Of a stretch of 64,000 bases of DNA, positions 5,616-38,554 are shown piece by piece. The position numbers were made by a program, and so were the translations under genes. Positions within the stretch are counted from its first letter, which is position 1. The number at the start of each line of letters is the position of its first letter. Under the pieces are notes generated by a model. That model ran no database searches and was not told the DNA's origin. It worked only from the letters and a program-made list of their open reading frames with translations. Where the stretch lies: NCBI GenBank assembly GCA_903912525.1, contig CAIWHK010000022.1, forward strand, positions 19,734 to 83,733, in the 5' to 3' direction. The DNA comes from an uncultured bacterium. GTDB taxonomy: Bacteria > Krumholzibacteriota > Krumholzibacteriia > LZORAL124-64-63.

Positions 5616-5758
5616 CCGGCGGATCCTCCAGTTTTCAGGGGCCCGGAGCGATCGCGGGCCGGGACACGGCGCGCGGTCCGGCGGCGATGACCGCCCCGCG
5701 CGGCGGCTAACATACACCCGGCGACCGGGAAGGAAAACCCCGGTCGTCCAGTGGGCTG

Positions 5759-6793: not shown

Positions 6794-6929
6794 GGGATCC
6801 TCTCCTTGGGCTGACGGGCGGCCGGGTAGAAACAGAACCGGTTCTCCAAGCCCCCCGGGCCGGAAAACCGGTTCACCAAAGCCATCTGGCGCGTTGCGCG
6901 GAGGGCGAGAGCGGACGCGCGGGACCGGT

Positions 6930-7208
6930 TCAGTCGCCGGCGACCTTGTCCTTCAACATCTTGGACACTTTGAACACGGGCACCTTGCGTGACGGCACGG
7001 GAACGGAGTCGCCGGTGCGCGGATTCCGCGCCATGCGCTCTTTGCGCTCCTTGACCTTGAACGTGCCAAAGCCCCTGATTTCCAGATGTTTGCCATCGAC
7101 CAGCAGGTCGCCAATCTTGTCCAGGAAGAGATCCACCGTCTCGGCGACTTCCTTCTTGGTCAGGCCGGTCCTCTGCGCAATGTCCTCAACGATATCGGCC
7201 TTCGTCAT
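6930..7208 (-). CDS. HU/IHF family DNA-binding protein
   Basis: 92 aa: [11 protein letters not shown]...[30 protein letters not shown] at 7208 is preceded by AGGAGGAG. Confidence 0.9.
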
Positions 7209-7659
7209 GGCGCTCCTCCTGGTTTCCTGGGGGTCGGCTCCCGGCGCTACCCACGCGCTCAACCCGGATTCTTCGGCATAAGCCAATACTTGTCAAGGGC
7301 TTTAATGATAATTGCCTGACCCGCCGCCGACAGCCGGCGCCGTGCCCGAGTCTCCCGGCAGGGCAAGTTGCAACACCCGGGCCCATGGCGCATCGCATTC
7401 CACACGTTCCGGATGGACCTCAACGGGGTGTGACGTTCCCCAGGATGCCCGCTTGTTCGCACTAATTGCTAAATAAATAAGGGATTACGCCGATATATCC
7501 AATGATTCCTCAAAAGGGCACCTGCTTTGCAGACCATCCGGCAACGGCGCGGCCGGCGGAGCAGGACCTGAACAACGTGCCACTGCAACCGATCTCCGCC
7601 GGCCGAGCCAGACAACACACCATCATCGGGCGAGACGGCGAACTGAAGGAGGGCCACTC

Positions 7660-8070
7660 ATGGCTAACAAGAAGATGATCGCGATGACCCTGATCCTTGG
7701 TCTGGTGGCTCTGGCCACCGGCTGCAGCGACTCCACGACGGCTCCTGTGACCACCCCCGACACGGCTCCCCCGACGCCCGCCGGCAACGTGTCCATCGCG
7801 TATGTCGATGGCGTGGCGACGCTGAGCTGGGACATCGAAGCCGTCGACGCCGACTTGGCGGGCTACGTCGTGACGCGCGAACACAACGGCGCCACCGTGG
7901 TGCTGCTCGAGGCGCCGACGCTCGTGACCACGGTCGAGGATGCCACCACCGAGCTGGGCACCAGCATCTACCACGTGTACGCCGTCGACACGACCGGCAA
8001 CGAGAGCGCCCCGTCGACGACCCAGCTGCTGCTCACCGGCAGCCACGCTGACGACAACCTGGCGGACTAA
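7660..8070 (+). CDS. small lipoprotein with Ig/FN3-like domain, unknown function
   Basis: Lipobox LATGC after a signal peptide, Thr/Pro linker, then a beta-rich domain. RBS GAAGGAGGG. Has its own terminator. Confidence 0.7.
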   Translation: MANKKMIAMTLILGLVALATGCSDSTTAPVTTPDTAPPTPAGNVSIAYVDGVATLSWDIEAVDADLAGYVVTREHNGATVVLLEAPTLVTTVEDATTELGTSIYHVYAVDTTGNESAPSTTQLLLTGSHADDNLAD

Positions 8071-8104
8071 GCCCTCGACCGGAGCCGATCCTCCTTCGAG
8101 TTCC

Positions 8105-8141
8105 CGAGCCCCCCGCACATGCAGGGGGCTCGTGTATTTTT
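8105..8141 (+). terminator. rho-independent terminator
   Basis: CGAGCCCCC / GGGGGCTCG stem followed by a T-rich tail (gtgtattttt). Confidence 0.75.
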
Positions 8142-8169
8142 GCGAGGCAGGGAAGGCGCAGCGGACGGA

Positions 8170-8859
8170 TCAGGCGCCGAGCTTCGCCAGCGCGAGCGCC
8201 AGGGCGAGGAACGGGCTGATCACCGCCTGCATGGTGCGCCCGAAGAGGGCGCCTGCCGGCGTGTAGTGCATCAGCAGCAGGAACCCGACCACCAGGAGCA
8301 TGCCGTAGCGGCGCAGGTTCTCGTAGGAGGCCCGCAGCGATGCCGGCAACAGGCGCGAGAAGATCCAGCTGCCGTCGAGCGGCGGCAACGGGATGAGGTT
8401 GAAGACAGCGAGCGCCACGTTCACGACGATACCGGTCTGCCAGACGCGCACGAGGAACTTCAGCGGCTCGAGCGCGGCGTGCCCTTCCGGGAATCGCCCG
8501 TAGGCGATCGCAGTCAACCCCAGGAGCACCGCCGCGACGAGCGCGAGCAACAGGTTGCTGAGGGGGCCGGCCGCCGCCACCTTCGGATAATCGTTCCACG
8601 GCTGGCGCAACCGTCCCGGGTGGACGGGAACCGGCTTGGCCCAGCCCATCATGAACGAACTGGTCAGCGCCAGCAGCGCCGGCACGATGATGCTGCCGAT
8701 GGGATCAATGTGAGGCAGGGGGTTCAGCGTCAGCCGCCCCTGGTCGCGCGCCGTGGTGTCGCCCAGCTTGAGCGCCACCCAACCGTGCGCCACTTCGTGG
8801 AACACGACCGAGAACACGACCACCAGCACCTGGATCAGTACGTCACCCATTGCCACCAT
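8170..8859 (-). CDS. M50 family (site-2 protease-like) zinc metalloprotease
   Basis: HEVAHG zinc motif inside a TM helix, NLIPLPPLDG second motif, polytopic membrane protein. Confidence 0.85.
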   Translation of the reverse strand: MVAMGDVLIQVLVVVFSVVFHEVAHGWVALKLGDTTARDQGRLTLNPLPHIDPIGSIIVPALLALTSSFMMGWAKPVPVHPGRLRQPWNDYPKVAAAGPLSNLLLALVAAVLLGLTAIAYGRFPEGHAALEPLKFLVRVWQTGIVVNVALAVFNLIPLPPLDGSWIFSRLLPASLRASYENLRRYGMLLVVGFLLLMHYTPAGALFGRTMQAVISPFLALALALAKLGA

Positions 8860-9988
8860 CCCGGTTCGTCACGGCGCGGCCGGCCAACGCGGCCCAGGCG
8901 CTCCACACAATGTCCTCCTCGAGGCCTTCCATCCAGCCGTATTCGGCGCCGCGGCCGTCGTCGCGGCGCGCGAAACTGCGCAGGGCGACAACCTCGGGCG
9001 CGGGCGGCTTCCAGCGCGCCGGGTCGGTGGGCCCGAACAGGGCCAGCGTCGGCACGCGCACGGCGCCGGCCACGTGCATGATGCCGGTGTCGTTGCACAG
9101 GAAGCGGTCGGCATCGGCCAGCAGCGCCGCGGCGACGCCGACGGCGCACGGCGGCGCCACGACGACCGCGCCCGCAGGCGCGTCCTTGCCGGCAAGCCCG
9201 GCGAACAGGGCGAGCGCCTCGCGATCGGCCGGGCCGTGCAGCACCAGGACCTGCCGACCGTTCGCAGCGGCGCGATGCGCCAGCGCCGCGAACCGACCGG
9301 CGGGCCAGACGTTCTGCCGCTTGCCCGCCCCCGGGTGCAGCGCCCAGAACCCGGGCCGAAGCCCGAGTTGCTCCCTGACCTGCGCTGCCTGGCGCCGCTC
9401 GGCGTCCGACGGCACCACGACCGTCGACAGGTCGTCGGTCGTGATGCCGATCGCGCGCAGCGGCGCCAGCCCGTGCTCGATGGCGTGCGTCGTCACCTCG
9501 GGCTCGCCGGGCATCTGAAGCGAAAAACAGTGCCCGCTGAAGTCCCAGCCGAACGGACGGCTGTCCCCGCCGACAACGTGGCGCGCGCCGCTGAGCAGAC
9601 CGATGAGCGCGCTGGTCAGCGAGAACGAGACGCTGCTGAGCACGATCGCCAGGTCGGGCTCCCAGGCGCGCAACCGGCGCAGGAAGCCCGGCACGCGACG
9701 CAGGGGACGCTCGAAGACGAACACGTCCGCCAGATCCGGGTTGTGGCGCACCACCTCGACGTTGCCCGGGGAAGTGACCAGCGCCACCTCGGCGCCAGGC
9801 CACGTCCGGGCGATGGCGCGCAGGGCCGGCGTGGCGCAGACCATGTCGCCCATCTGGTTGTGCTGACGCACGACCAGGATGCGGGCCGGCCGCAGCGCCG
9901 CCAGCCCCGCGGGGTCCAGCGGCGGCCGCCGCAGCGCGCGGGCCAGCGGGCGCATCAGGAACTGTTTGGCCCGCCTGGTCGCTGCCAT
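8843..9988 (-). CDS. glycosyltransferase family 9 (heptosyltransferase-like)
   Basis: ILVVRQHNQMGDMVCATPALRAI N-terminal motif, LHPGAG...W, CNDTGIMHVAGAVRVPTLALFGPT C-terminal motif. Confidence 0.85.
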   Translation of the reverse strand: MAATRRAKQFLMRPLARALRRPPLDPAGLAALRPARILVVRQHNQMGDMVCATPALRAIARTWPGAEVALVTSPGNVEVVRHNPDLADVFVFERPLRRVPGFLRRLRAWEPDLAIVLSSVSFSLTSALIGLLSGARHVVGGDSRPFGWDFSGHCFSLQMPGEPEVTTHAIEHGLAPLRAIGITTDDLSTVVVPSDAERRQAAQVREQLGLRPGFWALHPGAGKRQNVWPAGRFAALAHRAAANGRQVLVLHGPADREALALFAGLAGKDAPAGAVVVAPPCAVGVAAALLADADRFLCNDTGIMHVAGAVRVPTLALFGPTDPARWKPPAPEVVALRSFARRDDGRGAEYGWMEGLEEDIVWSAWAALAGRAVTNRDGGNG

Positions 9989-10104
9989 GCCCTTCCCCTG
10001 GTTGGCCGGCTGCTGCCGGGCCGTGGCACACTGCTTGCGTTCCGGCGGCCGGACGCCGGGTCACGGGCCCGGTCGCATGCCATCCGCGACGGGAGCATCG
10101 CCCC

Positions 10105-10374
10105 TTGAATCGCCTGCGCCTGCCGATCCTGATCCTGTCCGCCTGGCTGCTGGCGGGCATGGGCCTGTACGAACTGACGGCCAAATCGCCCACCTGGGCG
10201 GGCGAAGCCTGGCCGGGCTGGTGGGCCAGCGAGAAGGCCGAGCATGTGACCCGCTGGAAGCCGCCGACCGGCATCCTGCCCATCGACAAGGTCCTGCACG
10301 AGGGCGAGGAAGCCGCGCACTTCTACGCCACCCTGGCCGGTTCCCGGCCGTGGTTCCGCACCGGGCCTCAGTAG
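10105..10374 (+). CDS. hypothetical small membrane/secreted protein
   Basis: 89-codon ORF with a strongly G/C-ending third position and an N-terminal hydrophobic segment. TTG start, no recognisable family. 3' end overlaps the rsgA stop convergently. Confidence 0.4.
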   Translation: MNRLRLPILILSAWLLAGMGLYELTAKSPTWAGEAWPGWWASEKAEHVTRWKPPTGILPIDKVLHEGEEAAHFYATLAGSRPWFRTGPQ

Positions 10375-11342
10375 CCGGCGGAACGTTTCCGGTCCTCGAG
10401 ATCCCTCAGCAACGCCAGGTACGCTTCGTGTCGCCAGGCCGGCAGCCGGCCGCGCGCCACGGCGTCCTTGACGCCGCAACCGGGCTCGTCGCGGTGCAGG
10501 CACCCGCGGAAACGGCAATCGAGCGCTATCGTCTCGAGGTCCGGAAAATAGGCGCGGATGTCCGCCGGAGCAATGTCCCAGGGGTCGAAGCCGCGCAGCC
10601 CGGGCGAGTCGGCGATGAAGCCGCCGCCGGTCACCGCGTGGAGTTCCGTGTGGGTCGTGGTGTGGCGACCGAGGCCCGTGCGATCGGTGACCTCGTTGAC
10701 GCGCAGTCCCAGGTCGGGATAGAGCACATTCAGCAGGCTGCTCTTGCCCACGCCGGAGGCGCCCAGCAACAGCGAGACTTTCCCCGCCAGCAGGGCCGCC
10801 AGCTCGGGCACGCCTTCGGAGGTGGCGACCGAGGTCGGCACGACGTCGACCTCGAGCGTGCGGTAGTAGCCCCAGCGTTCCATTTCGCGCCGGCGCGAAG
10901 CCTCGTCACGGCAAAGATCGATCTTGTTGACGACGACGGCGCCGTGCACGTCGAACCGCAGCGCGGCGGCCAGCAGGCGGTCGACGAAGCCGGTCTGGGG
11001 CTCGGGATCGCGCACGGACTGGACCACGACCAGCTGGTCCAGGTTCGCCATGAGCACCTGCTCGACGCGCCCCCCGCTGCGGCGGGCCGCCATCCGCGAG
11101 ATGCGGTTCCGGCGCGGAAGGACCTCCTCCACGACGCCCTCGCGCCCGTCGGGCCCCTGCCCGGCCACCGCTTCGAACCGCACCCGATCCCCGGCAACAA
11201 CCAGCGACTGCACCTGTTTGGGCCCCTTCTTCAGGCGCCCGCGGACCTGGCATTGCCAGGTCTCCGGGGCCACGTACACCTGGCAATGCCCGGCGCCGGC
11301 CCGGATGACGATGCCCTCGCGCTGCTCTACGCCTTCGCTCAT
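10368..11342 (-). CDS. rsgA: ribosome small-subunit-dependent GTPase A
   Basis: Circularly permuted GTPase: NKIDL, GASGVGKSSL, DSPG, and C-terminal zinc cluster CRFRGCLHRDEPGC. Confidence 0.92.
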   Translation of the reverse strand: MSEGVEQREGIVIRAGAGHCQVYVAPETWQCQVRGRLKKGPKQVQSLVVAGDRVRFEAVAGQGPDGREGVVEEVLPRRNRISRMAARRSGGRVEQVLMANLDQLVVVQSVRDPEPQTGFVDRLLAAALRFDVHGAVVVNKIDLCRDEASRRREMERWGYYRTLEVDVVPTSVATSEGVPELAALLAGKVSLLLGASGVGKSSLLNVLYPDLGLRVNEVTDRTGLGRHTTTHTELHAVTGGGFIADSPGLRGFDPWDIAPADIRAYFPDLETIALDCRFRGCLHRDEPGCGVKDAVARGRLPAWRHEAYLALLRDLEDRKRSAGY

Positions 11343-12422: not shown

Positions 12423-13433
12423 TTAGCCCGGGGTGCGCGAGTTCATGTAGTTGATCGACGACTGCAGCAGGTCGCGGGCGTACGCGGGGTTGTGCACGCC
12501 ATGGCTGCGGTCCTCGGTGCCGATGTACATGAAGTTCCAGATCGCGCCGGCGTCGTCGGCCGGACGGCCGGTGGCCGTCAGCGGCGTGCCCGAGGCGTTC
12601 ACGAAGCCGGCCGTCACCAGCAGGGCCTTGAGGTCGACCAGCAGGCCGTCGATCTCGGTCTGGACGCCGTTGTAGTCGTAGTTGTCGCCGATGTCCTCGT
12701 GGCAGCCGACGCAGGCCTGCGTGTTGTAGACCACGGTCACGCCGTCCTCGCCCAGGGCCGTCACGTTGAACGTGTGGCCGCCCACTTCGTAGGCCACGTT
12801 GCGCATGTGGCAGTTCACGCAACCGTCCTCGTTCATCGTGCGATGGTACGGGGTCTCGGTGTACGTGTAGCCTTCATACTCGTAGCCGTTGGCGCCCATC
12901 AGCAGGTCGCCCTGGGGGCCGTGGTGCGGGCCGTAGCGGCTGTTGATGTTGTTGCTGGACGTGATGTACACGGCCACGTCGCGACGGGCCTGGTGGCAGA
13001 CCACGCAGGTGTTGCCCTTGCCCAGGTCGTAGCTCTCGCCGTTCAGCAGCGCCACCGGGGCGGTGATGCGCAGGCCGAAGTCGCCGTTGCTGTGCGGCGC
13101 GTGGCACGTGAAGCAGTTGATGTTCGTCGGCGTCGTCGTGGCCGTGTAGGTCGTCGCGCCGTTGACGTACTGGATAAAGCCCTCGTTGGCGTGGCAACGC
13201 ACGCACGACGGGTTCGTGCCCTCGAAGACGGTCTCACCCTCGCCGTGACGGCTCTCGGCCCACTCGGTCTGGGCACGGACCACGCTCAGGTCCACGTCGG
13301 AGTGGCATTCGAAGCAATTGGACGGCTGCGGATCTTCCTGCACGATGGTCGTGATTTCCCTGGTGCAGGCCGACAGGGCCAGCAGGCCCACGATGCCGAC
13401 CAAGATCAGTAGATGCTTGCGAGTCAGCGACAT
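12423..13433 (-). CDS. hexahaem c-type cytochrome lipoprotein
   Basis: Lipobox LSAC. Six CxxCH motifs: CFECH, CVRCH, CFTCH, CVVCH, CVNCH, CVGCH. RBS AAGGAGG. Confidence 0.9.
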   Translation of the reverse strand: MSLTRKHLLILVGIVGLLALSACTREITTIVQEDPQPSNCFECHSDVDLSVVRAQTEWAESRHGEGETVFEGTNPSCVRCHANEGFIQYVNGATTYTATTTPTNINCFTCHAPHSNGDFGLRITAPVALLNGESYDLGKGNTCVVCHQARRDVAVYITSSNNINSRYGPHHGPQGDLLMGANGYEYEGYTYTETPYHRTMNEDGCVNCHMRNVAYEVGGHTFNVTALGEDGVTVVYNTQACVGCHEDIGDNYDYNGVQTEIDGLLVDLKALLVTAGFVNASGTPLTATGRPADDAGAIWNFMYIGTEDRSHGVHNPAYARDLLQSSINYMNSRTPG

Positions 13434-13470
13434 TACCTTTCCTCCTTGTACCGGTCGTTTCTAACGCGGA

Positions 13471-15045
13471 TCAGTCCACAGGCAACTTGTAACCGACATT
13501 CAGCGAGATGACGTTCGTCGTGAAGTAGCGGTCGAGCAGGACGTAGTCGTCGTAGTTGTACACGTTGTAGCGCACACTCACGAAGTAGTCCCGGCTCAGG
13601 TCGTACTTGCCGTCGAACGTCAGGATGGATTTCTCGACGTCCAGGTCCTTGCCGAGGTCCAGGTAGGTGACCCCGCCGCCCAACCGCAGCCCCTTGACGC
13701 CGGTCAGGTCGACGCGGGCGGTCACGGTGCTGTTGTCGGCGCGGTAGGCTCCTGCCTGGTCCACGTACTCGTCGTCACTGTAGGCGTACTCGACCGACGC
13801 CGTGCCCCACTGCGTCAGCGCCAGGCGCGTGAAGCCACTGTAGCGCTTCCCGGTGGCGGTGACGTCGAGGACCGGATAGTCGCGATCGCGCTGCAGGAAG
13901 GCGGCGCCGACGGTCAGCCGGTCGTTCACCTTGGCCTGGGCGCTGGCCCGCCAGCGGCTGGACTCGATGTCCTTGAGCAGCGTCAGGCTCTCCTGGTCGT
14001 CACGCTCGCTCGTGGCGTAGCTGGCGCGAAGCTGCCAGCGCGGATCGTGGTACGAGCCGCCGATGCGCCACGTGTTGGTGTCGGTCAGGGTCTTGTCGTC
14101 GTCGGTCGTGGCGTAGCCGTAGCCGGCGAAGAACGAGCCTCTCGCGCGGCGCCAGGTCACGTCGACGTCGTTGCGGGTGCGGTCGGTCTGCAGGCCGGTC
14201 GCATCGCTCTCGATGCGGCTGCCGTCGAACCGGTAGCGCAGCTCGACGTCGTCCGCGGCCTTCACGGTGCCGAAGTACTGGAAGGCCGACGTCGTGCAAT
14301 CGAGCGCCGTGTCGTCCAGCTCCTGCGTCCCGTACGAGGCGCGCACGAAGTGCGAGACCTTGCCCGGGAACAGTAGGCACGGCAGGCTGGCGCGCGCCGA
14401 GATGACGTTCCCGGAGCGGTCCATGCCCGCGTGCAGGTCGTCGGCCAGGCTCGATTTCTCGACGCCGACCGCGAACATCCGCCCGTCCTGGCGGTACTCG
14501 CCCTCCAGGAAGTGCGTCTGCAGCAGGTAGTCGTAGCCGGTCCCCAGCGCCGAGATCGTGCCGTCGGGGATGGCCCAGCGGTCGCCTTCGCGCGCCTGGC
14601 GGCCGTAGTCGGCCGTGAAGCGGAACGAAGAGCCGGGCGTCACGCGCGCGCTGAAGTTCCAGTCGCGGCGCTCGGCGCTGACCTGGTCGTCGACGCTGTA
14701 GAAATGCCGGGACTGGTGGTGGCGCACGCTGAACGTGCCCAGGTCGGCCACGCGGTAGGTGAACATCCCCTGGCCGCCATGGTCGTTCAGGTCACGGATA
14801 TCCAGGTGGAAAGCCGTGCGGTCGCCCGTCGTCCCGTCGAGATTCAGGCGGGACAGGTTCAGCCCGTCGTAGACATTCCAGAACTCGGGCATCGTGCTCG
14901 CATCGCCGGTCGTCTTCTCGACGTAGACCTTCCCGACTTCGAGCGTGCCGCCCACCGTGCCGGCCAGGGCCGGCTGCGTGAGGACCAGGGCCACGACCAG
15001 CAGCGAGCCGGCCGACAGGATCCGATTCATGACTTGGTTACGCAT
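13471..15045 (-). CDS. outer-membrane beta-barrel protein, candidate MtrB/PioB-like porin partner of the flanking cytochromes
   Basis: Signal peptide (LTQPALA/GT), then about 500 aa of alternating-polarity, Tyr/Asp/Arg-rich strand-like repeats. RBS AGAGGGGG overlaps the upstream stop. Family assignment rests on context and composition only. Confidence 0.65.
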   Translation of the reverse strand: MRNQVMNRILSAGSLLVVALVLTQPALAGTVGGTLEVGKVYVEKTTGDASTMPEFWNVYDGLNLSRLNLDGTTGDRTAFHLDIRDLNDHGGQGMFTYRVADLGTFSVRHHQSRHFYSVDDQVSAERRDWNFSARVTPGSSFRFTADYGRQAREGDRWAIPDGTISALGTGYDYLLQTHFLEGEYRQDGRMFAVGVEKSSLADDLHAGMDRSGNVISARASLPCLLFPGKVSHFVRASYGTQELDDTALDCTTSAFQYFGTVKAADDVELRYRFDGSRIESDATGLQTDRTRNDVDVTWRRARGSFFAGYGYATTDDDKTLTDTNTWRIGGSYHDPRWQLRASYATSERDDQESLTLLKDIESSRWRASAQAKVNDRLTVGAAFLQRDRDYPVLDVTATGKRYSGFTRLALTQWGTASVEYAYSDDEYVDQAGAYRADNSTVTARVDLTGVKGLRLGGGVTYLDLGKDLDVEKSILTFDGKYDLSRDYFVSVRYNVYNYDDYVLLDRYFTTNVISLNVGYKLPVD

Positions 15046-15057
15046 TCCGCACCCCCT

Positions 15058-16035
15058 CTAGTGGCCGCCGTGGCACCCGATCGCAAGACAGCCTTGGGGC
15101 TGCAGCGCGGGCGTCAGGAGGAGCCGGTTGGTGTACGAGCCGTGCACGTCGACATGGCATTCGTTGCAGGACACGCCGGCAAAGCGGTCACCGTGCATGC
15201 TGTTCATGTTGTGCCCCGGCACCGTGTGGCACTGCGAGCACAACTGGAAGTGCGGCGCCGCATAGGGCTGCTTCAGCAGCACCAGCTGGGCCGACCCGTG
15301 CGGATCGTGGCAGTTCAGGCAGCCGCCGTCCTCGACCGAGTAGTCGAGGGTCGCGGCATGCTCGAACGGGAACGGCCCGCGCATATTCGCGTGGCACTTG
15401 GCGCAGGTCGCGTTCACGTCGCGGCGGACCGCGCCGGCCATGCCGTCGTCACCCGAAAGGTGGCAATCGGTGCAACGGACCGCGCCCTCCTCGACCGGGT
15501 GGTGCGACAGCTGCGCGAACTGGCCGCGGACGCCGGTGTGGCACCCGTAGCACAGCTCCGGCTGCGAGGCGTGCAGCAGCCCCATGGCGGTACCTTCGTG
15601 CACACTGTGGCAGGCCGTGCAGGACACGTCAGCCGCGGCGTGCGCGCTGAGCGTCTGCTGGTTGACCTGGTGAACGCCCTGGTGGCAGGTCGCGCACACA
15701 GCGGACACTTCCCTGGCACCCAGCTTGGCCGGGTTGGCCATCGGGTTGGCCGAGGGGTCGTCCTGCCAGTGAGCCGGCTGGCCGGCGTGGCAACTGGTGC
15801 AGGAGATGCGGGTGGCCACATCCCCGGCCGCACCCATCAGCACCCGGTGCGGGCTGGCGGCCAGCGTTGCCGCCAGGCCGTCGTGGCAGTCCAGGCAGAC
15901 CGCAGTCTGGCCGGAACCGCCGGCGTCCGTGGCAGCCTCGGCGGCTCCCAGCGGCCCGGCGTTCCACGCCAGGCCGAGGGCGCAGCACAGCAGGCCGCCC
16001 ACGAACCATGACAATTTCCTGAAGTCAGCGTCCAA
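15058..16035 (-). CDS. MtrA/DmsE-family decahaem c-type cytochrome (periplasmic)
   Basis: Ten CxxCH motifs plus a terminal CLAIGCH. GPFPFEH...GGCLNCHDPHGS block as in MtrA/DmsE. TTG at 16035 (GAGG 8 nt upstream) gives a normal signal peptide. The ORF is open up to the ATG at 16149, but that stretch is AT-rich and polar. Confidence 0.88.
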   Translation of the reverse strand: MDADFRKLSWFVGGLLCCALGLAWNAGPLGAAEAATDAGGSGQTAVCLDCHDGLAATLAASPHRVLMGAAGDVATRISCTSCHAGQPAHWQDDPSANPMANPAKLGAREVSAVCATCHQGVHQVNQQTLSAHAAADVSCTACHSVHEGTAMGLLHASQPELCYGCHTGVRGQFAQLSHHPVEEGAVRCTDCHLSGDDGMAGAVRRDVNATCAKCHANMRGPFPFEHAATLDYSVEDGGCLNCHDPHGSAQLVLLKQPYAAPHFQLCSQCHTVPGHNMNSMHGDRFAGVSCNECHVDVHGSYTNRLLLTPALQPQGCLAIGCHGGH

Positions 16036-16112
16036 AGTGGAAACCTCTCGGTTCGGGTTGAGCGCCTCGTCGCGGAATATCCCTAGCGGAGAGTTGGTTG
16101 ATCGGTTGGAAG

Positions 16113-16149
16113 TGTCAAGCGCTTTAGTTGACAAATTAACAATTGTCAA
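16113..16149 (-). promoter_or_regulatory. TTGACA/TGTCAA inverted-repeat array upstream of the cytochrome operon
   Basis: TGTCAA (16113-16118), TTGACA (16128-16133) and TTGTCAA (16143-16149) form nested inverted repeats in an AT-rich stretch about 80-110 nt upstream of the proposed start. Confidence 0.4.
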
Positions 16150-31023: not shown

Positions 31024-31917
31024 TTGCCCGTGTCCGCCGTCCGCCCCGCCGTCCTTGCCGGCACCTGGTACCCCGCCGAGCCGGCGGTCCTGGCGCGCCT
31101 GGCCGACGACTTCCTGGGCGGGGCGAGCCCGGCCGCGCCTCCGTCCGGCCGCCCCCTGGTCGCCCTGGCCCCCCACGCCGGCTACGCCTGGAGCGGGTCG
31201 GTGGCCGGGAAGCTGTTCGGCCTCCTGCGCGGCAGCGGCGTCCGCCGCCTCGTGATCCTGGCGCCCAGCCACCGGGCGCGGCTGGACCGGCCGACCCTCA
31301 GCGGCGCGACGGCCTTCGCGACGCCGCTCGGCCAGGTGCCGATCGACGTCGCGGCGGTAGCGCGGCTCGCGGCCGGCGGCGCCTTCGCGATCGACGACCG
31401 CGCCCATCGCGACGAACATGCGATCGAGATCCAGCTCCCCCTGGTCCAGCGGTGCTGGCCCGGCTCCTGCCCGGCCATCGTCCCGGCCCTGGTGCCGCAT
31501 CTGGACGACCGCCGGCGCGCGGCGGCCGCGGCGGCGCTGGCGGCGGAACTGGACGAGAACACGCTGCTGCTCGTCTCGACCGACCTGACACACTACGGCG
31601 CGGATTACGGCTACGTTCCGTTCACCGCAGACATCCCGGCGGCCATCGAGCGGCTCGACGCCGGCGCCCTGTTGCGGGTGCTGGCCGCCGACGGTCCCGG
31701 ACTTCTGGCGTACGGCCGCACGACGGGGATCACGATGTGCGGCCTCGAGGCCGCGGCGCTGGCGCTGGCCTGCGGGGTGCCGCCGGGGCACCAGGCGGCG
31801 CTGCTTGATTACGCGCGCAGCGGCGACCACGACGGAGACTACACGCGGTCTGTGAGCTACGCCGCCGCCGTCCTGACCAGCGGACCGGGCGCCGGGACAG
31901 GTGAAGGCACGAAATGA
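31024..31917 (+). CDS. amrB: AmmeMemoRadiSam system protein B (MEMO1 family)
   Basis: AGTWYP, APHAGY.WSG, APSH, EHAIEIQLP motifs. GTG start 6 nt after GGAGG. Confidence 0.85.
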   Translation: MPVSAVRPAVLAGTWYPAEPAVLARLADDFLGGASPAAPPSGRPLVALAPHAGYAWSGSVAGKLFGLLRGSGVRRLVILAPSHRARLDRPTLSGATAFATPLGQVPIDVAAVARLAAGGAFAIDDRAHRDEHAIEIQLPLVQRCWPGSCPAIVPALVPHLDDRRRAAAAAALAAELDENTLLLVSTDLTHYGADYGYVPFTADIPAAIERLDAGALLRVLAADGPGLLAYGRTTGITMCGLEAAALALACGVPPGHQAALLDYARSGDHDGDYTRSVSYAAAVLTSGPGAGTGEGTK

Positions 31918-32489
31918 ACAACGACGGCACGCCGCCATTGACCACCGCCGAGCGTACCTTCCTGCGCGAGGTCGCCGTGCGTTCGGTGGCCGCAGCCGCG
32001 CACGGCGAGCGGGCGCCCGACCCCGTTGCCATCGCCGACGAACTCGGCGTGCCGCTGACCGGCCGGCTGGCCGAAACGGGCGGCGCATTCGTGACGCTGC
32101 ACGAAGGCGAGGACCTGCGCGGATGCATCGGCACGATCGTCGGCCACGAGCCCCTTGCCCTGGCGGTGGCCGCCAACGGCGTCGCGGCGGCGGCCCATGA
32201 CCCCCGGTTCGCGCCCGTCTCACCTGATGAACTATCAAATATCACAATTGAGGTTTCGGTCCTGACACCCCTGCGCGAGGTGGCCGGGCCGAACGATGTC
32301 ACGGTCGGTCGTCACGGTATCCTGTTGGAAAAGAACGGTCGTCACGCCGTCTTTCTGCCGCAGGTGGCGCCGGAGCAGGGCTGGGACCTCGCCACCACCC
32401 TGGCCCACCTGTGCCGAAAGGCAGGCCTGCCGAACGACGCCTGGCGACAGGGGGCGCGGTTGCACGTGTTCGAGGCGGAAGTTTTCTAG
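31914..32489 (+). CDS. amrA: AmmeMemoRadiSam system protein A (AMMECR1 family)
   Basis: GAFVTLH...LRGCIGT...DPRF...GRHGILL...AVFLPQV motifs. ATG overlaps the amrB stop (ATGA). Confidence 0.88.
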   Translation: MNNDGTPPLTTAERTFLREVAVRSVAAAAHGERAPDPVAIADELGVPLTGRLAETGGAFVTLHEGEDLRGCIGTIVGHEPLALAVAANGVAAAAHDPRFAPVSPDELSNITIEVSVLTPLREVAGPNDVTVGRHGILLEKNGRHAVFLPQVAPEQGWDLATTLAHLCRKAGLPNDAWRQGARLHVFEAEVF

Positions 32490-32623
32490 TTGTGACACAA
32501 CCGGCGGACGGCTATTTTCGGCGTTCGTGTGTCAAGATGGCGGGGTAAACCCTTTACCCTCGCTCGATTCTGTTTGCCTGAGACGTCGCCAGGGATGGCG
32601 CGTCCCGAGGAAGGCGGTTCCGA

Positions 32624-33811
32624 ATGGGCCTGCTCGACAAAGTCGGGAAGTTCCAGTTGGCCAGACAGCTGATGGCTGCTGACCTGTACAACTACTTCCG
32701 CGTGATCGAGTCCGCCCAGGAGAATACCGTCCGGTACAAGGGCAAAGAGATCATCATGCTCGGCTCCAACAACTACCTGGGGCTGACCAACCACCCCAAG
32801 GTGAAGGAAGCCGCGCGCGCCGCCATCTCCAAGTACGGCACCGGCTGCGCCGGCTCGCGCTTCCTGAACGGGACCCTGGACATCCACATCGAGCTCGAGG
32901 AGAAGCTGGCCCGGCTGGTCGGCAAGCCGAAGGCGCTCGTTTTCTCCACGGGTTTCATGGTCAACCAGGGCGTGCTCAGTTCGCTGGTGCAGCGCAACGA
33001 GTCGATCATCGTCGACCGCACCGACCATGCGTCGATCATCGACGGCGCGCGGCTCTCGTTTGCCGACGTGCGCAAGTACAAGCACAACGACATGGACAAC
33101 CTCGAACTGGTGCTGCAGAACGAGCGCGAGCGGAACAAGCTGATCGTCATCGACGGCGTGTTCTCGATGGAGGGCGACATCGCCCGCCTGCCCGAGATCA
33201 TCGAACTGGCCGAGAAGTACGATGCCGTCGTCATGGTCGACGACGCGCACGGCGTCGGCGTGCTGGGCGACCACGGCCGCGGCACCTGCAACCACTTCGG
33301 CCTGACCGACCGCACGCACCTGATCATGGGCACGTTCAGCAAGTCGCTGGCATCGGTCGGCGGCTTCATCGCCGCGGACGAGGACACGATCCATTTCATC
33401 CAGCACCAGGCGCGCTCGCTGATCTTCTCGGCCTCGATGCCCCCGGGCTCGGTCGCCTCGGTTTCGGCCGCGGTCGACGTGATGCTGGAGGAGACGTGGC
33501 GGCACGAGGCGCTGTGGCGGAACAACGACATCATGCGCCAGCGCCTGGACGCTGCCGGCTTCAACACCGGCCCCAGTGAAACCCCGATCATCCCGGCGAT
33601 CGTCGGCGAGGACATGACCGCGTTCATCTTCTGCCGGCGACTGATCGACGAGGGCGTGTTCGTGAACCCCGTCGTGTCCCCCGCAGTCGAAGCCGGCAAT
33701 GCCCTGATCCGCCTGAGCCTGATGGCCACGCACACCGAGGACGAGATCAACAAGGCGATGGACATCATGGAGCGCGTCGCGCGCGAGATGGAAATCATCC
33801 CGGGCCGCTGA
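32624..33811 (+). CDS. PLP-dependent alpha-oxoamine synthase, serine-palmitoyltransferase-like
   Basis: SNNYLGL, GSRFLNG, DDAHG, GTFSKSLASVGG (PLP lysine). Cannot be separated from BioF/Kbl by eye; the Spt call rests on operon context. Confidence 0.8.
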   Translation: MGLLDKVGKFQLARQLMAADLYNYFRVIESAQENTVRYKGKEIIMLGSNNYLGLTNHPKVKEAARAAISKYGTGCAGSRFLNGTLDIHIELEEKLARLVGKPKALVFSTGFMVNQGVLSSLVQRNESIIVDRTDHASIIDGARLSFADVRKYKHNDMDNLELVLQNERERNKLIVIDGVFSMEGDIARLPEIIELAEKYDAVVMVDDAHGVGVLGDHGRGTCNHFGLTDRTHLIMGTFSKSLASVGGFIAADEDTIHFIQHQARSLIFSASMPPGSVASVSAAVDVMLEETWRHEALWRNNDIMRQRLDAAGFNTGPSETPIIPAIVGEDMTAFIFCRRLIDEGVFVNPVVSPAVEAGNALIRLSLMATHTEDEINKAMDIMERVAREMEIIPGR

Positions 33812-33842
33812 CCCGGCCCGAGACTCGACCGAGGAGGACGGC

Positions 33843-34967
33843 ATGGCCGTGAACATCATCCCGGTCGGCGACGACCGGAAATTGCTGGACCGTTTCCAGA
33901 AGCTGCCCTATGCGGTCTACGGCGACGACCCGCACGTGGTGTTCCCCCTGCTCGACGAGCAGAAGAAGTTCTTCAATCGCTCGCACAACCCGTTCTTCTC
34001 GCACGCCGTCGCCGAGATGTGGCTGGCCGTGCGCGACGGGCGTGATGTCGGCCGCATCAGCGCCTGTGTCGACCGCACGAACAACGAGCACCACAAGGAA
34101 CAGGTCGGTTTCTACGGCTTCTACGAATCGTTCGATGACGCCGAAGCCGCCGCCGCGCTTCTGCAGGCCGCCGCCGACTGGATCCGCGCGCAAGGCATGG
34201 ACACGATGCGCGGGCCCGGTTGCTTCACATCGAACCATGACTGGTACGGACTGCAGGTCGGTGGTCGCTTCGACCGCCCGATGATCGGCATGCCCTACAA
34301 CCCGCGCTACTACGAGAAGCACTTCGCCGACTTCGGGCTGACCGGCGCCCAGGACCTCTACGCCTGGTGGATGGAAACCGGCGGCAAGCTGCCGGAGAAG
34401 ATGCAGGAACTGATCGACCGCGTGCTGGCAAGGCCCGGCCTGACGATCCGGCCGATGGACATGAAGAACTTCCTGCCGGAGGCCTCGCTGGTCCGCGAGT
34501 TGTACAACCAGTGCTGGAGCGCGAACTGGGGTTTCATCCCCCTGAGCGACGCCGAGTTCGCCTACATGGCCAAGGACATGAAGTCCATGGTCGACGCCGA
34601 CTTCCTGCTGATCGCCGAGATGGACGGCAAGCCGGTGGGCTTTGCGCTGACCATCCCCGACTTCAACCAGGCCACGCAGCCCCTCAAGGGACGCCTGCTC
34701 CCGTTCGGCTGGCTGAAGTTCCTGCTCGGCAAGCGGAAGATCCGCTCGGCGCGCTGCATCCTGATGGGCGTGCTGCCGGACTACCGGAAGATGGGTATCG
34801 ACATGGGCATGGTCTACAAGACCATGATGGCCGCCTTCGACAAGGGCATCACCCATGGCGAGTGCTCGTGGATCCTGGCGGACAACCGCGCGATGAACCG
34901 CATCCTCGAAGGCTACGGGGCCGACTGCTACAAGACCTACCGCGTCTACGAGAAGAAGCTGGCATGA
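33843..34967 (+). CDS. GNAT-fold N-acyltransferase-like protein (candidate bacterial ceramide synthase, bCerS-like)
   Basis: 374 aa, two-lobed GNAT-like pattern (C-terminal GVLPDYRKMGI). Sits between Spt-like and SDR genes. Functional call is contextual. Confidence 0.55.
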   Translation: MAVNIIPVGDDRKLLDRFQKLPYAVYGDDPHVVFPLLDEQKKFFNRSHNPFFSHAVAEMWLAVRDGRDVGRISACVDRTNNEHHKEQVGFYGFYESFDDAEAAAALLQAAADWIRAQGMDTMRGPGCFTSNHDWYGLQVGGRFDRPMIGMPYNPRYYEKHFADFGLTGAQDLYAWWMETGGKLPEKMQELIDRVLARPGLTIRPMDMKNFLPEASLVRELYNQCWSANWGFIPLSDAEFAYMAKDMKSMVDADFLLIAEMDGKPVGFALTIPDFNQATQPLKGRLLPFGWLKFLLGKRKIRSARCILMGVLPDYRKMGIDMGMVYKTMMAAFDKGITHGECSWILADNRAMNRILEGYGADCYKTYRVYEKKLA

Positions 34968-35962
34968 CCGCAGGCGGCGGCGAGGGCCGGTTGGTCGTCC
35001 TGACGGGGGCCACCGGGTTCCTGGGCAGCCATCTGGCCGAGGCTCTGCTGGACGATGGCTGGCGCGTGCGCGCCACCTGCCGTCCTGCAGGCGACCGCCA
35101 GTGGCTGGCGGATCGCCCCGTCGAGTGGCGGGTCAGCGACCTGACCAGCGCCGACGACTGCCGGGAACTGCTGCGCGGGGCGCACACGGTGGTGCACTGC
35201 GCCGGCGTGGTGGCGGCGCTCGACGAGCTGGCCTACACCCGCGGCAATGTCGACACGACGGCGGCGCTGCTGAAGGCGGGCGCCTACTCCCTGCCCGGCG
35301 ACGGCGCCTTCGTGCTGGTCTCGAGCCTGGCGGCGCACGGTCCCGCCGGGCTGGACAAGCCCGCCGTCGAGGACGATCCCTGCCGGCCCATCACTCCCTA
35401 CGGGCGCAGCAAGCTGGCCGCCGAGCATCTGGTCACCGGCCAGGCCTGGCCCTTCCGCACGGCTGCCGTCAGGCCGCCCGCGCTGAGCGGGCCGCGCGAC
35501 CGCGGCTTCCTGCCGCTGCTGCATTTCGCCTACCGGGGCTGGACGGCGCGTTTGGGCAAGCGGATGAGCGGCATCTCGCTGGTGGACGGCCGCGATGCCG
35601 CTGCCGCAGTGGCCGCGGTGACGCGGACACCCAGTGCCAGCGGCGTCTACTTCGTGGACGACGGCCGTGCCGGCTACACCTGGGAAGACCTCAGGCAGGC
35701 CCTGGAGAAGGCCGTCGAGCGCAAGGTGCGCCAGGTGGATGTGCCGCTCGGCGCGCTGCGCCTGGCCGGCCGCCTGCGCGGCGGCTGGAAGCCGGGCCAG
35801 CCCTCGGTCCTGGGCCCGGACCGCCTGGCCGACCTGGACACCGACGGCTGGGCCTGCGACGGGAGTCGCCTGGTCGCGGCGACGGGCTTCGTCGCGCGGC
35901 GCGACGCCGCCGCCAGCTTCACCGACGCGCTGCTGTTCTACCGGAAGGCGGGCTGGCTGTGA
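34964..35962 (+). CDS. NAD(P)-dependent epimerase/dehydratase-family SDR (candidate ceramide/ketosphinganine reductase, CerR-like)
   Basis: GATGFLGSH Rossmann motif, YGRSK (YxxxK). ATG overlaps the upstream stop (ATGA). Confidence 0.7.
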   Translation: MTAGGGEGRLVVLTGATGFLGSHLAEALLDDGWRVRATCRPAGDRQWLADRPVEWRVSDLTSADDCRELLRGAHTVVHCAGVVAALDELAYTRGNVDTTAALLKAGAYSLPGDGAFVLVSSLAAHGPAGLDKPAVEDDPCRPITPYGRSKLAAEHLVTGQAWPFRTAAVRPPALSGPRDRGFLPLLHFAYRGWTARLGKRMSGISLVDGRDAAAAVAAVTRTPSASGVYFVDDGRAGYTWEDLRQALEKAVERKVRQVDVPLGALRLAGRLRGGWKPGQPSVLGPDRLADLDTDGWACDGSRLVAATGFVARRDAAASFTDALLFYRKAGWL

Positions 35963-36882
35963 CGTGGCGACGCCGGCTCATCGAACTGTCGCTGCGGCGG
36001 ATGAACCACGACCGCCTGGCGGTGGTCTACCTGGCGCTCAGCGCGTTCTACCCGGCGCTGAAGCCCTCGGTGTTCCCGCGCCCCGTGGAGAACGCGCTGA
36101 TCCACGCCGGGCTGGCCCTGCTGGTGTGGTTCGGGGCGCCGATGCTGCGCGCGAGCCGGCACACGGCCTGGCGCCTGCTCGGTGAGATCTACCTGCCGCT
36201 GATCTTCCCGCTGTTCTACGCGGAGATGAAGTTCCTCGGGCTGATCTACTTCCCGTTCGAGGGCAGCCTCGATCCCGCGCTGATCCGCCTGGAGCAGTGG
36301 ATCTTCGGCTGCCAGCCGAGCATCACCTGGTCGCGCGCGTGGCCGTGGCCGTGGTTCCACGAACTGATGGAGTTCGCGTACTTCACGTACTACTTCCTGG
36401 CCGCGGCCTTCGTCTGGCTGGTGATGCGCGCGCAGACGCAGGATCCCGAGCGTCGCTGGGACGACCTGCGCGACTTCGTGCGCGACCTGAGCGTCACGAT
36501 GCTCATCTGCTACACGCTCTACACGCTGTTCCCGGCCTGGGGACCGAAGTACTTCCGCCTGGGCTTCCTGGAAGTTCCCGGCGGCCCGTTCACGGCGATC
36601 ATGCGGCACATCCACGAAAACGGCGCCATCCTCGGCGCCGCCTTCCCGTCCAGCCATGTCGCCGCCTCGATGGTGCCGTGGTGGCACACGTGGCGGCGTT
36701 TCCCTCGCCATCGCTGGTGGATGTCGACGCTCTTCGTGCTGCTGTGCATGTCGACGGTCTACAACCGCTACCACTACGTCGTGGACGTGATCGCCGGATT
36801 GCTGCTGGGCGCGCTGGTGATGTACGCGGGGCCGCGCCTGGGCGACACGGCGCGCGACCGCCTGCGCCGGCGCCGGCGCTGA
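35959..36882 (+). CDS. PAP2-superfamily membrane enzyme, sphingomyelin/IPC-synthase-like
   Basis: Polytopic membrane protein. FPSSHVA and NRYHYVVDVIAG resemble the SGH and HYxxDV catalytic motifs of LPP/SMS-type transferases. GTG overlaps the upstream stop (GTGA); ATG 36001 is the alternative start. Confidence 0.7.
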   Translation: MTWRRRLIELSLRRMNHDRLAVVYLALSAFYPALKPSVFPRPVENALIHAGLALLVWFGAPMLRASRHTAWRLLGEIYLPLIFPLFYAEMKFLGLIYFPFEGSLDPALIRLEQWIFGCQPSITWSRAWPWPWFHELMEFAYFTYYFLAAAFVWLVMRAQTQDPERRWDDLRDFVRDLSVTMLICYTLYTLFPAWGPKYFRLGFLEVPGGPFTAIMRHIHENGAILGAAFPSSHVAASMVPWWHTWRRFPRHRWWMSTLFVLLCMSTVYNRYHYVVDVIAGLLLGALVMYAGPRLGDTARDRLRRRRR

Positions 36883-36948: not shown

Positions 36949-37161
36949 TCAGGAAAAGCCCCGGCCACCGCCGCAACCGCTCCCGCAGCCGCCGCCGCCG
37001 GTCGCCCCGCCACCACCGGTGGCGAAGCTCGAGAGCGCGCGGATGACCTCGGTCGAGGCGCAGTGGGGACAGGCCACCTCGGCCGACTCGAGGTCGGCCA
37101 GGGCCAGCAGTTCCTCGAAGTTCTTCCCGCACTTGCCGCAGGTGAATTCGAACAGGGGCAT
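36949..37161 (-). CDS. FmdB-family zinc-ribbon protein
   Basis: MPLFEFTCGKCG...CPHCAS plus a Gly/Cys-rich tail. RBS GAAGGAG. Confidence 0.8.
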   Translation of the reverse strand: MPLFEFTCGKCGKNFEELLALADLESAEVACPHCASTEVIRALSSFATGGGGATGGGGCGSGCGGGRGFS

Positions 37162-37514: not shown

Positions 37515-38327
37515 TCAGAAAGTCCCCTTCACCCAGCCCCCGTCGCTTGTGATCGACTGGCCGGTGATGTAGCCGGCCGGCCCGGACATCAGGAACACGA
37601 CGAGGGCCGCCAATTCGTCGGCCTCGCCCAGCCGCCCCAGGGGAATCTCGCGGGTCCAGCCGGCGATGACGTCGTCGCGCGAGGCCCCGGTCTGCTCCTG
37701 CTTGCGCGTGATGAGCCGTTCGACGGCGCTGGTCAGGTGGAACCCGGGCGCCACGGCGTTGACCGTCACGCCGGACGGGGCCGCCTCCAGCGCCAGCGTG
37801 CGCACGAGGGCCTGCACCGCCGGGCGCAGCACGCTCGAGAGCATCAGGTTCTCCACGGGCTGGCGCACGCTCACCGAGGTGATGCAGACGATGCGCCCGC
37901 GCCGACGCTCCATCATCCCGGGCGCCACCAGCCGGCACAGGCGCACGGCGCTTTCGACCGTCAGCCGGTAGGCGCCTTCCCAGGCGGCGAGGTCCAGGTC
38001 GGCGAAATTGCCGGCCGGCGGGCCGCCGGCGTTGACCAGCAGCAGGTCGATGGGCCCCAGTTCGCGCGTCACACGCTCGACGGCCCCGGTCACGGCGGCA
38101 TCGTCGGTCACGTCCGCCGACACCGCCAGCACGCGCCCGGCTGCCGCTCCGCGCGCCGCGGCGCCGGCGCGCGCCACATCGGCGGCCGCTTCCTGCAGTG
38201 CTGATTCGCCGCGCGCCGTCAACGCCACGTGGGCGCCTTCGGCAGCCAGCCTCAGGGCCACCGCGAGGCCGAATCCGCGCGAGCCGCCGGTGACCAGGGC
38301 GGTGCGCCCCGCCAGTGACAGGTCCAT
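37515..38327 (-). CDS. SDR-family oxidoreductase (FabG-like)
   Basis: TGGSRGFG, NAGG, and an S...L/Y-x3-R/K region. ATG at 38327 preceded by GGAAGGA. Confidence 0.8.
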   Translation of the reverse strand: MDLSLAGRTALVTGGSRGFGLAVALRLAAEGAHVALTARGESALQEAAADVARAGAAARGAAAGRVLAVSADVTDDAAVTGAVERVTRELGPIDLLLVNAGGPPAGNFADLDLAAWEGAYRLTVESAVRLCRLVAPGMMERRRGRIVCITSVSVRQPVENLMLSSVLRPAVQALVRTLALEAAPSGVTVNAVAPGFHLTSAVERLITRKQEQTGASRDDVIAGWTREIPLGRLGEADELAALVVFLMSGPAGYITGQSITSDGGWVKGTF

Positions 38328-38554
38328 CGTTCGCCGTCCTTCCGCCGGCCCTGCCGGCCCCGCCATCATAGGGCATGACGCGCCGCCGGCCTACCGTGCA
38401 GACCCGTGCGCGCCCTGATCGGCACCCGCGCGGCACGGCGGTTGCTGCTCTTTCGGATCGCCCCTGCGCGACACCGCGCCCGGGCACGATGGGGAACGAT
38501 GGGACATCAACGGGAACGCCCCGGCCGGCGGGAGCGTGCAGGGACAACATCCAC

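Follow-up and report, generated by a model that had tools for sequence, protein, structure and literature searches.

A four-gene operon with a PAP2_3 membrane protein as a probable phosphosphingolipid synthesis unit in a Krumholzibacteriota-like bacterium

What lipid is made by a compact operon of four biosynthetic genes in an uncultured Krumholzibacteriota-like bacterium, and what does its last gene, encoding a PAP2-type membrane protein, add to that lipid? The operon occupies positions 32,624 to 36,882 of the window analysed here, a stretch of 64,000 nucleotides from contig CAIWHK010000022.1. In bacteria, sphingolipids influence how stable the outer membrane is, and those of Bacteroidota also act on immune signalling in the host. 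The core set of three ceramide enzymes was recognised in 2021–2022, and predictions place it in dozens of phyla. A further uncultured phylum with this core is in itself a small addition. The new lead is gene 4. It belongs to an uncharacterised AUR1/SMS-like PAP2 subfamily whose genes are translationally coupled to a reductase gene here and in Bacteroides; in several further phyla they are linked to the gene for ceramide synthase. This makes it a concrete candidate for attaching phospho-head groups to bacterial ceramide.

An earlier note on this DNA, made from the letters alone, read the operon as ceramide synthesis genes followed by a head-group transferase. The gene order, the motifs and the junctions (31 nt, ATGA and GTGA) that it listed are all present in the sequence:

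32624–33811, + strand: gene 1, Spt-type alpha-oxoamine synthase, 395 aa; GTFSKSL with the pyridoxal phosphate lysine K240
33843–34967, + strand: gene 2, tandem-GNAT N-acyltransferase of the YghO/bCerS family, 374 aa
34964–35962, + strand: gene 3, CerR-type extended short-chain dehydrogenase/reductase (SDR), 332 aa; GATGFLGSH and YGRSK motifs
35959–36882, + strand: gene 4, PAP2_3 (AUR1/SMS-like) integral membrane protein, 307 aa, about 8 transmembrane helices

The 31-nt spacer between genes 1 and 2 has a GAGGAGGA ribosome-binding site inside it. Genes 2 and 3 overlap by ATGA and genes 3 and 4 by GTGA, and the ATG start of gene 3 and the GTG start of gene 4 are backed by full-length homologues of equal length. 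We conclude that the operon is probably a chromosomal, translationally coupled unit for making a phosphosphingolipid, the activities, substrates, head group and topology being those predicted below.

In the proposed pathway, gene 1 would condense serine with acyl-CoA or with an acyl group on acyl carrier protein (ACP) to give 3-ketosphinganine. The gene 2 product would N-acylate the long-chain base or 3-ketosphinganine, and that of gene 3 would reduce the 3-keto group, giving dihydroceramide. The order of N-acylation and reduction is debated even in Caulobacter. Finally, the His-His-Asp triad of gene 4, at the periplasmic face of the inner membrane, would move a phospho-head group onto the 1-OH of the ceramide. 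The donor would be a glycerophospholipid and the head group phosphoethanolamine, phosphoglycerol or phosphoinositol, with release of diacylglycerol.

The ceramide core, genes 1 to 3

Gene 1 matches Aminotran_1_2 in Pfam at 202 bits. Among the NCBIfam models it scores 585.8 bits on SerpalmtaseCFB (NF047600), followed by 412.6 on Kbl, 399.1 on BioF, 302.9 on the alphaproteobacterial Spt model NF047603, 268.3 on HemA and 225.3 on the CqsA type. The PDB gives the same picture: 445.7 bits to the serine palmitoyltransferase (SPT) of Sphingobacterium multivorum (3a2b), 277–310 bits to Kbl and BioF structures and 214.5 bits to the solved cysteate-C-fatty acyltransferase of sulfonolipid synthesis. The earlier note had called this gene Spt-like, and grouping with BioF or Kbl was the outcome that it named as speaking against that; gene 1 does not group with them. 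By these comparisons, its place is in the Spt clade; BioF, Kbl, HemA, CqsA and the cysteate acyltransferase are all more distant from it than experimentally verified Spt. Residues H135, D206, H209, K240 and R363 align with the catalytic H159, D231, H234, K265 and R390 of Sphingomonas SPT, and R378 of that enzyme aligns with V351. The Spt of this operon is of the Bacteroidota type and not of the alphaproteobacterial type (585.8 versus 302.9 bits).

The family of gene 2 is harder to see. Acetyltransf_1 is a weak Pfam match (29.8 bits), Pfam and NCBIfam are little informative in general, and a single-sequence search of the PDB returned nothing significant. The decisive search was a translated one, of annotated plasmid records and mis-filed chromosome records. 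It recovered homologues with about 34–40% identity over the whole length, lying in recognisable sphingolipid loci. Full-length identities are 34.8% in Sphingomonas (E 5e-68), 35.5% to E. coli YghO (E 4e-75) and 38.6% in Streptomyces (E 2e-87). The locus of Sphingomonas parapaucimobilis has SDR, ACP and Spt genes in that order, followed by LptF and LptG paralogues, a desaturase gene and the GNAT gene. In E. coli, YghO is encoded beside a fatty acyl-AMP ligase, which is the counterpart there of the acyl-ACP synthetase, with an SDR, an ACP, an oxoamine synthase and LptF/LptG paralogues; this locus spans 3310–11089 of our L083, an E. coli PN43 record. A Streptomyces plasmid and a Rubrobacter plasmid carry the gene 2 homologue inside an operon of alpha-oxoamine synthase (AOS), GNAT and SDR genes. 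Overall, the three-enzyme sets of Sphingomonas, E. coli and Streptomyces have 30–41% identity to the window proteins. The AlphaFold model of gene 2 (predicted local distance difference test score, pLDDT, 84) has the tandem-GNAT fold seen in MshD and related N-acyltransferases, matching 2wpw, 7q3a and MshD with probability 1.0 and E-values of 1e-10 to 1e-14.

The link to the named ceramide synthase comes through published gene maps. The Caulobacter sphingolipid locus runs from ccna_01212 to ccna_01226, with lptG2 at 01213 and lptF2 at 01214, and S. wittichii and E. coli UTI89 are drawn with equivalent operons in the same 2026 preprint (bioRxiv 10.64898/2026.04.12.717747). CCNA_01212 is the Caulobacter ceramide synthase, bcerS (PMC10865984). 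Since the Sphingomonas GNAT gene adjoins lptG2 as ccna_01212 does, we file gene 2 in the YghO/bCerS family.

Two side observations concern relatives of gene 2. The plasmid AOS-GNAT-SDR operons of Streptomyces and Rubrobacter (L082 6769–11295; L086 3587–9179) are followed by genes for a condensation-domain protein or a protein of the lipoteichoic acid synthase family, and by no PAP2 gene, which suggests other ways to decorate a ceramide-like product. Cloacimonadota loci (L066 6711–10262; L079 211–2577) hold two or three tandem GNAT paralogues with no spt nearby, in agreement with a published remark that the spt genes of Cloacimonadota are not co-located with bcerS or cerR.

Gene 3 (Epimerase, 88.8 bits in Pfam) has GATGFLG near its N-terminus and YGRSK at residue 146. 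Its best NCBIfam match is HpnA, whose cut-off of 368 bits is far above the score of 67. The SDRs linked to Spt or GNAT genes in six organisms are 30–36% identical to it (E 1e-24 to 1e-51), and seven SDRs linked to Spt, GNAT or PAP2 genes form a coherent family with mutual E-values of 1e-18 to 1e-51. In two whole E. coli chromosomes whose records are mis-filed as plasmids, the sole match to gene 3 at E<=1e-10 is the SDR encoded about 2 kb from yghO; GalE, RfbB and other epimerase-type SDRs are not matched there at that threshold. The classical SDR whose gene lies convergent downstream of the operon (37515–38369) is unrelated to gene 3 by comparison.

The bCerS-type and CerR-type assignments of the earlier note are therefore upheld as full-length homology to the acyltransferases and reductases of the Sphingomonas, E. 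coli and Streptomyces sphingolipid loci. With gene 1, all three ceramide assignments hold at the family level and the ceramide reading is supported. The window encodes the same families as Caulobacter (oxoamine synthase, YghO-type tandem GNAT, extended SDR), whose spt we take to be ccna_01220. It differs from Caulobacter and its counterparts in having one tight spt-GNAT-SDR operon without ACP, acyl-ACP synthetase or LptF/G paralogues. A further difference concerns what is done with the product. Glycosyltransferases decorate ceramide in Caulobacter. That organism also uses a kinase-based phosphoglycerate route, not PAP2, for the same end (PMC11324152, PMC10331486).

Gene 4 and the phospho-head group

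In Pfam, gene 4 scores 67.5 bits on PAP2_3 and 27.9 on PAP2_C, passing the cut-off of 27 for each, and 37.5 on the general PAP2 model (PF01569). Its triad, formed by H233 in FPSSH and by H272 and D276 in YHYVVD, is invariant in 23 homologues and is also kept in the homologues of other phyla and Bacteroides. By direct reading, the sequence has neither the phosphatase C1 motif KX6RP nor the canonical SR of C3; C3 reads STVYNRYHYVVD, like STMYLTHHYFVD in AUR1. A single-sequence search of the PDB found nothing significant for gene 4, and a profile and structure prediction were needed. With a profile of the 23 homologues, the sole significant PDB match is yeast AUR1 (E 1.3e-4), the alignment placing AFPSSH and YHYVVDV on the AUR1 catalytic region (FPSLH, HHYFVD). 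With the predicted structure (pLDDT 79), the top three Foldseek matches come before any phosphatase, each with probability 1.0: inositol phosphorylceramide synthase with ceramide, Aur1-Kei1, and human SMSr with ceramide (9vj4, 9ivc and 8ijq). The positive-inside rule puts the termini and the Arg-rich loops in the cytoplasm, which would leave the triad at the periplasmic face. The suggestion in the earlier note that the fourth gene could turn ceramide into a phosphosphingolipid is strengthened by these results, as the PAP2 protein looks more like ceramide phosphotransferases (AUR1, SMSr) than like phosphatases.

Gene 4 shares with AUR1, BT_1522, SMS and SMSr a predicted multi-pass PAP2 fold with His-His-Asp in FPSxH and HYxxD motifs and no phosphatase C1. 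Sequence similarity to AUR1 is limited to about 75 residues around the catalytic motifs. Coupling to a reductase gene, as seen here, is an arrangement not described for either AUR1 or BT_1522 in the literature consulted. BT_1522 lies in the BT_1522–1526 inositol cluster (PMC9246714, PMC8791184), whereas the operon in the window is without inositol-synthesis genes. On NF052609, the model of the BT_1522 phosphoinositol dihydroceramide synthase, whose cut-off is 480, gene 4 reaches 17.8 bits (E 0.0017) and the match covers just the catalytic region; by sequence it is not a BT_1522 orthologue.

As to the donor, one other gene of the window is relevant:

3407–4030, − strand: CDP-alcohol phosphatidyltransferase, 207 aa

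This protein scores best on phosphatidylinositol-phosphate synthase models, at 136 and 130 bits, which is below their cut-offs of 180 and 170; on the PgsA and PssA models it scores about 23 bits. From that ranking, the host may make inositol phospholipids, and phosphatidylinositol becomes a possible donor beside phosphatidylethanolamine (PE) and phosphatidylglycerol.

The most serious competitor keeps the ceramide core and changes only the last step. In it, genes 1 to 3 make ceramide and gene 4 is a lipid phosphate phosphatase, acting on ceramide-1-phosphate, a sphingoid-base phosphate, phosphatidylglycerophosphate or lipid A. The match to the general PAP2 model would fit, as would the database names of the relatives, all of them "phosphatase PAP2 family protein" or "membrane-associated phospholipid phosphatase". 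PgpB of B. subtilis turns up as a weak match in both sequence (E 0.049) and structure (rank 4), and His-His-Asp chemistry is common to phosphatases and transferases. The motifs argue the other way, with C1 and the SR of C3 missing and C3 itself AUR1-like. So do the matches to both PAP2_3 and PAP2_C, the families of AUR1 and SMS, the fact that the three best structural matches are ceramide phosphotransferases, and the lack of a ceramide kinase gene in the operon. We consider a phosphatase unlikely. Changing the first step instead, the oxoamine synthase could work on alanine, glycine or another amino acid, giving a non-canonical N-acyl amino lipid akin to 1-deoxyceramide while the PAP2 protein acts elsewhere. 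Spt enzymes are reported to take alanine, yielding 1-deoxyceramides, which are abundant in anoxic waters (PMC11334938, PMC10191378); gene 1 falls just below the NF047600 cut-off and has V351 in place of the Sphingomonas R378. A coupled phosphotransferase conserved in synteny, however, needs the free 1-OH that only a serine-derived base gives, and the nearest characterised enzyme to gene 1 is, by a wide margin, a true SPT. We hold such a product to be quite improbable. The other pathway raised in the earlier note, a capnine-type sulfonolipid pathway of cysteate acyltransferase, reductase and N-acyltransferase, would draw on the same three classes of enzyme, and the host is a member of the Fibrobacterota–Chlorobiota–Bacteroidota (FCB) group, as are the sulfonolipid-producing Bacteroidota. 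It finds no support in the comparison that separates the two, the cysteate-C-fatty acyltransferase scoring less than half as many bits as SPT (214.5 versus 445.7). The annotated genes of the window include no cysteate synthase, and in capnine a sulfonate stands in the place of the hydroxyl that the PAP2 transferase would require. We regard it as barely credible.

Phosphosphingolipid synthesis thus remains our preferred reading of the operon, and several observations count against it. Gene 1 is below the NF047600 equivalog cut-off (585.8 versus 640), though every other family scores far lower. The earlier note had proposed looking for an ACP or acyl-ACP synthetase, and no dedicated one is among the annotated window genes. 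Genes 2 and 3 were compared with surrogates from Sphingomonas, E. coli and Streptomyces, standing in for the ceramide synthases CCNA_01212 of Caulobacter and BF9343_4218 of B. fragilis, both genetically validated, and for the reductases CCNA_01222 and BF9343_4240. The N-terminus of gene 3, MTAGGGEGRLVVLTGATG, is without a visible signal peptide. Caulobacter CerR (ccna_01222; PMC10865984) is reported to be periplasmic, and the passages found in that report name no export signal for it (PMC11087976). For gene 4, the structural matches are moderate (template-modelling scores 0.38–0.54, E 4e-3 to 3e-2), the score on the BT_1522 model is far from its cut-off, and the database names are uniformly of the phosphatase type.

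Distribution of the operon and a related gene pair in Bacteroidales

Synteny was counted among the closest 80 loci retrieved with the GNAT family, 26 of them Krumholzibacteriia-like. In the Krumholzibacteriia-like loci with enough flank, Spt is present in 19/19, the SDR in 15/15 and PAP2 in 15/15, always in the same order, so the arrangement is not due to chance. Where the contig is long enough the full order is Memo-AMMECR1-Spt-GNAT-SDR-PAP2. Among the retrieved loci from other phyla, 20 of 36 GNAT loci have Spt, and a PAP2 homologue bearing the motifs accompanies GNAT in 13 of 34. The arrangements vary. Gemmatimonadota (Longimicrobiales) have SDR-Spt-GNAT-PAP2, and Acidobacteriota have SDR-Spt-GNAT with PAP2 on the opposite strand. 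A divergent SDR lies beside Spt-GNAT in Planctomycetota, Zixibacteria and Ignavibacteria, and GNAT-PAP2 stands alone in Armatimonadota and others.

Two of the contigs bear archaeal labels. A 3-kb contig labelled Thermoplasmata archaeon (L077) carries Spt-GNAT-PAP2, and one labelled Bathyarchaeia (L054) carries GNAT alone; this would be either mis-binning or transfer to archaea. A Black Sea study found no archaeal metagenome-assembled genome (MAG) with an Spt-like gene.

The SDR and PAP2 genes also occur as a pair in Bacteroidales:

L084 6992–8955, L087 3660–5591 and L088 3003–4966: Bacteroidales SDR-PAP2 pairs, homologous to genes 3 and 4

In Bacteroides finegoldii and a second Bacteroides genome the SDR gene is followed by the PAP2 gene with a 10-nt overlap, and in Prevotella sp. 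oral taxon 299 with a 39-nt gap. The gene order is that of the window. The SDR is homologous to gene 3 (E about 1e-33) and the Bacteroides PAP2 protein aligns with gene 4 in hhalign with a probability of 99.6% (E 1.9e-23). The differences are that the pair is isolated from spt and from the gene for ceramide synthase, and that its proteins have 24–29% identity to those of the window. The Bacteroides PAP2 family has 5516 relatives, all with generic names. Our literature search found no functional test of the Bacteroidales pair, which is annotated as "NAD(P)-dependent oxidoreductase" and "phosphatase PAP2 family protein".

How much of this is new differs between the core and gene 4. Spt-like genes have been predicted in about 40 phyla, with spt, bcerS and cerR "often found clustered" (PMC11334938). 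Given that published clustering and wide phylum range, the core of the finding, an Spt/bCerS/CerR operon, is of an already known kind. The expectation of the earlier note that such an operon would be notable outside Bacteroidota, Alphaproteobacteria and Myxococcota is weakened to the same extent. Our literature search found no paper pairing Krumholzibacteriota with sphingolipids, and the phylum is not listed in the supplements of the Black Sea paper. In the literature to which we had access, which was partial, we found no paper linking a PAP2 gene to a bacterial spt; one may be published elsewhere.

Bacteroides makes abundant phosphoethanolamine ceramides, and in the literature consulted this head-group step is without an assigned gene. 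A BLAST search of B. thetaiotaomicron with the Drosophila ceramide phosphoethanolamine synthase found no ethanolamine phosphorylceramide (EPC) synthase (PMC8791184), and no enzyme for PE-dihydroceramide is given in a review from 2023 (PMC10191378). With a PAP2 gene standing beside a reductase-type SDR gene and no EPC synthase assigned in Bacteroides, the PAP2 protein is a testable candidate. We advance tentatively, as a possibility that may well fail, that the PAP2_3 protein represents the missing bacterial family of ceramide phospho-head-group transferases, most plausibly an EPC/PE-dihydroceramide synthase. If so, the Bacteroides and Prevotella PAP2 proteins encoded after a CerR-type SDR would be the long-sought PE-dihydroceramide synthase of gut and oral Bacteroidota.

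Boundaries, control region and genomic setting

The immediate flanks of the operon are as follows:

31024–32489, + strand: AmmeMemoRadiSam system proteins B and A, directly upstream of the operon
32490–32520, + strand: promoter-like boxes, TTG at 32490–32492, 20 nt, then TATTTTCG at 32513–32520
32539–32576, + strand: conserved 5′-leader hairpin (GGCGGGG...CCYTCGC), followed in many loci by a T-rich run
36949–37161, − strand: FmdB-type zinc-ribbon protein with a Gly/Cys-rich tail, 70 aa; convergent, just past the PAP2 stop

On its 5′ side the operon is preceded by a 134-nt intergenic region after the AMMECR1 gene. This gap, with the convergent zinc-ribbon gene downstream, marks the operon as a discrete four-gene unit.

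Within the gap, both promoter-like boxes are kept in most of the aligned Krumholzibacteriia upstream regions, as TTG, about 20 nt, and then CTATTTTC. The consensus of the Bacteroidota-type −33/−7 promoter is TTTG / TAnnTTTG. The boxes resemble that type and may function as a promoter. A scan for sigma-70 promoters and terminators gave nothing relevant to the operon and nothing at the boxes. The hairpin that follows was folded singly and also with RNAalifold on 13 orthologous leaders, where it has 7 pairs, 2 of them with compensatory changes, and a small covariation term. The leader has no match in Rfam. The weak covariation leaves the hairpin as possibly an attenuator or a protein-binding site. 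A palindrome just past the AMMECR1 stop, TTGTGACACAA, was considered as a regulator site and dropped, since only L002, the closest relative, conserves it.

The operon belongs to the surrounding chromosome. The G+C content at third codon positions (GC3) is about 0.92 in genes 1 and 2, matching the rest of the window, which is about 69% G+C. The neighbours are housekeeping genes, encoding a Mrp/ApbC-type ATPase, STAS proteins, AmmeMemoRadiSam A and B, MetRS, FabH and the SecY-Adk-Map-S11-S4-RpoA-L17 cluster. A horizontally transferred island was considered and rejected on the genome-like GC3, these neighbours and the Memo-AMMECR1 flank, which is syntenic across the class. The nearest relatives of genes 2 and 4, at 57–93% identity, come from MAGs; those with a taxon label are mostly Candidatus Krumholzibacteriia, and the rest are unclassified or filed as Fibrobacteraceae. 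On this basis the host is an uncultured bacterium within Krumholzibacteriota or closely related to that phylum. The AmmeMemoRadiSam B and A genes are syntenic with the operon in most Krumholzibacteriia-like loci, and no radical-SAM partner adjoins them.

Elsewhere in the window (12423–16149, − strand), two multihaem c-type cytochrome genes with MtrC/MtrF-like domains and paired CXXCH motifs flank a gene for a 524-aa protein without a Pfam match. This group is a possible extracellular electron-transfer module.

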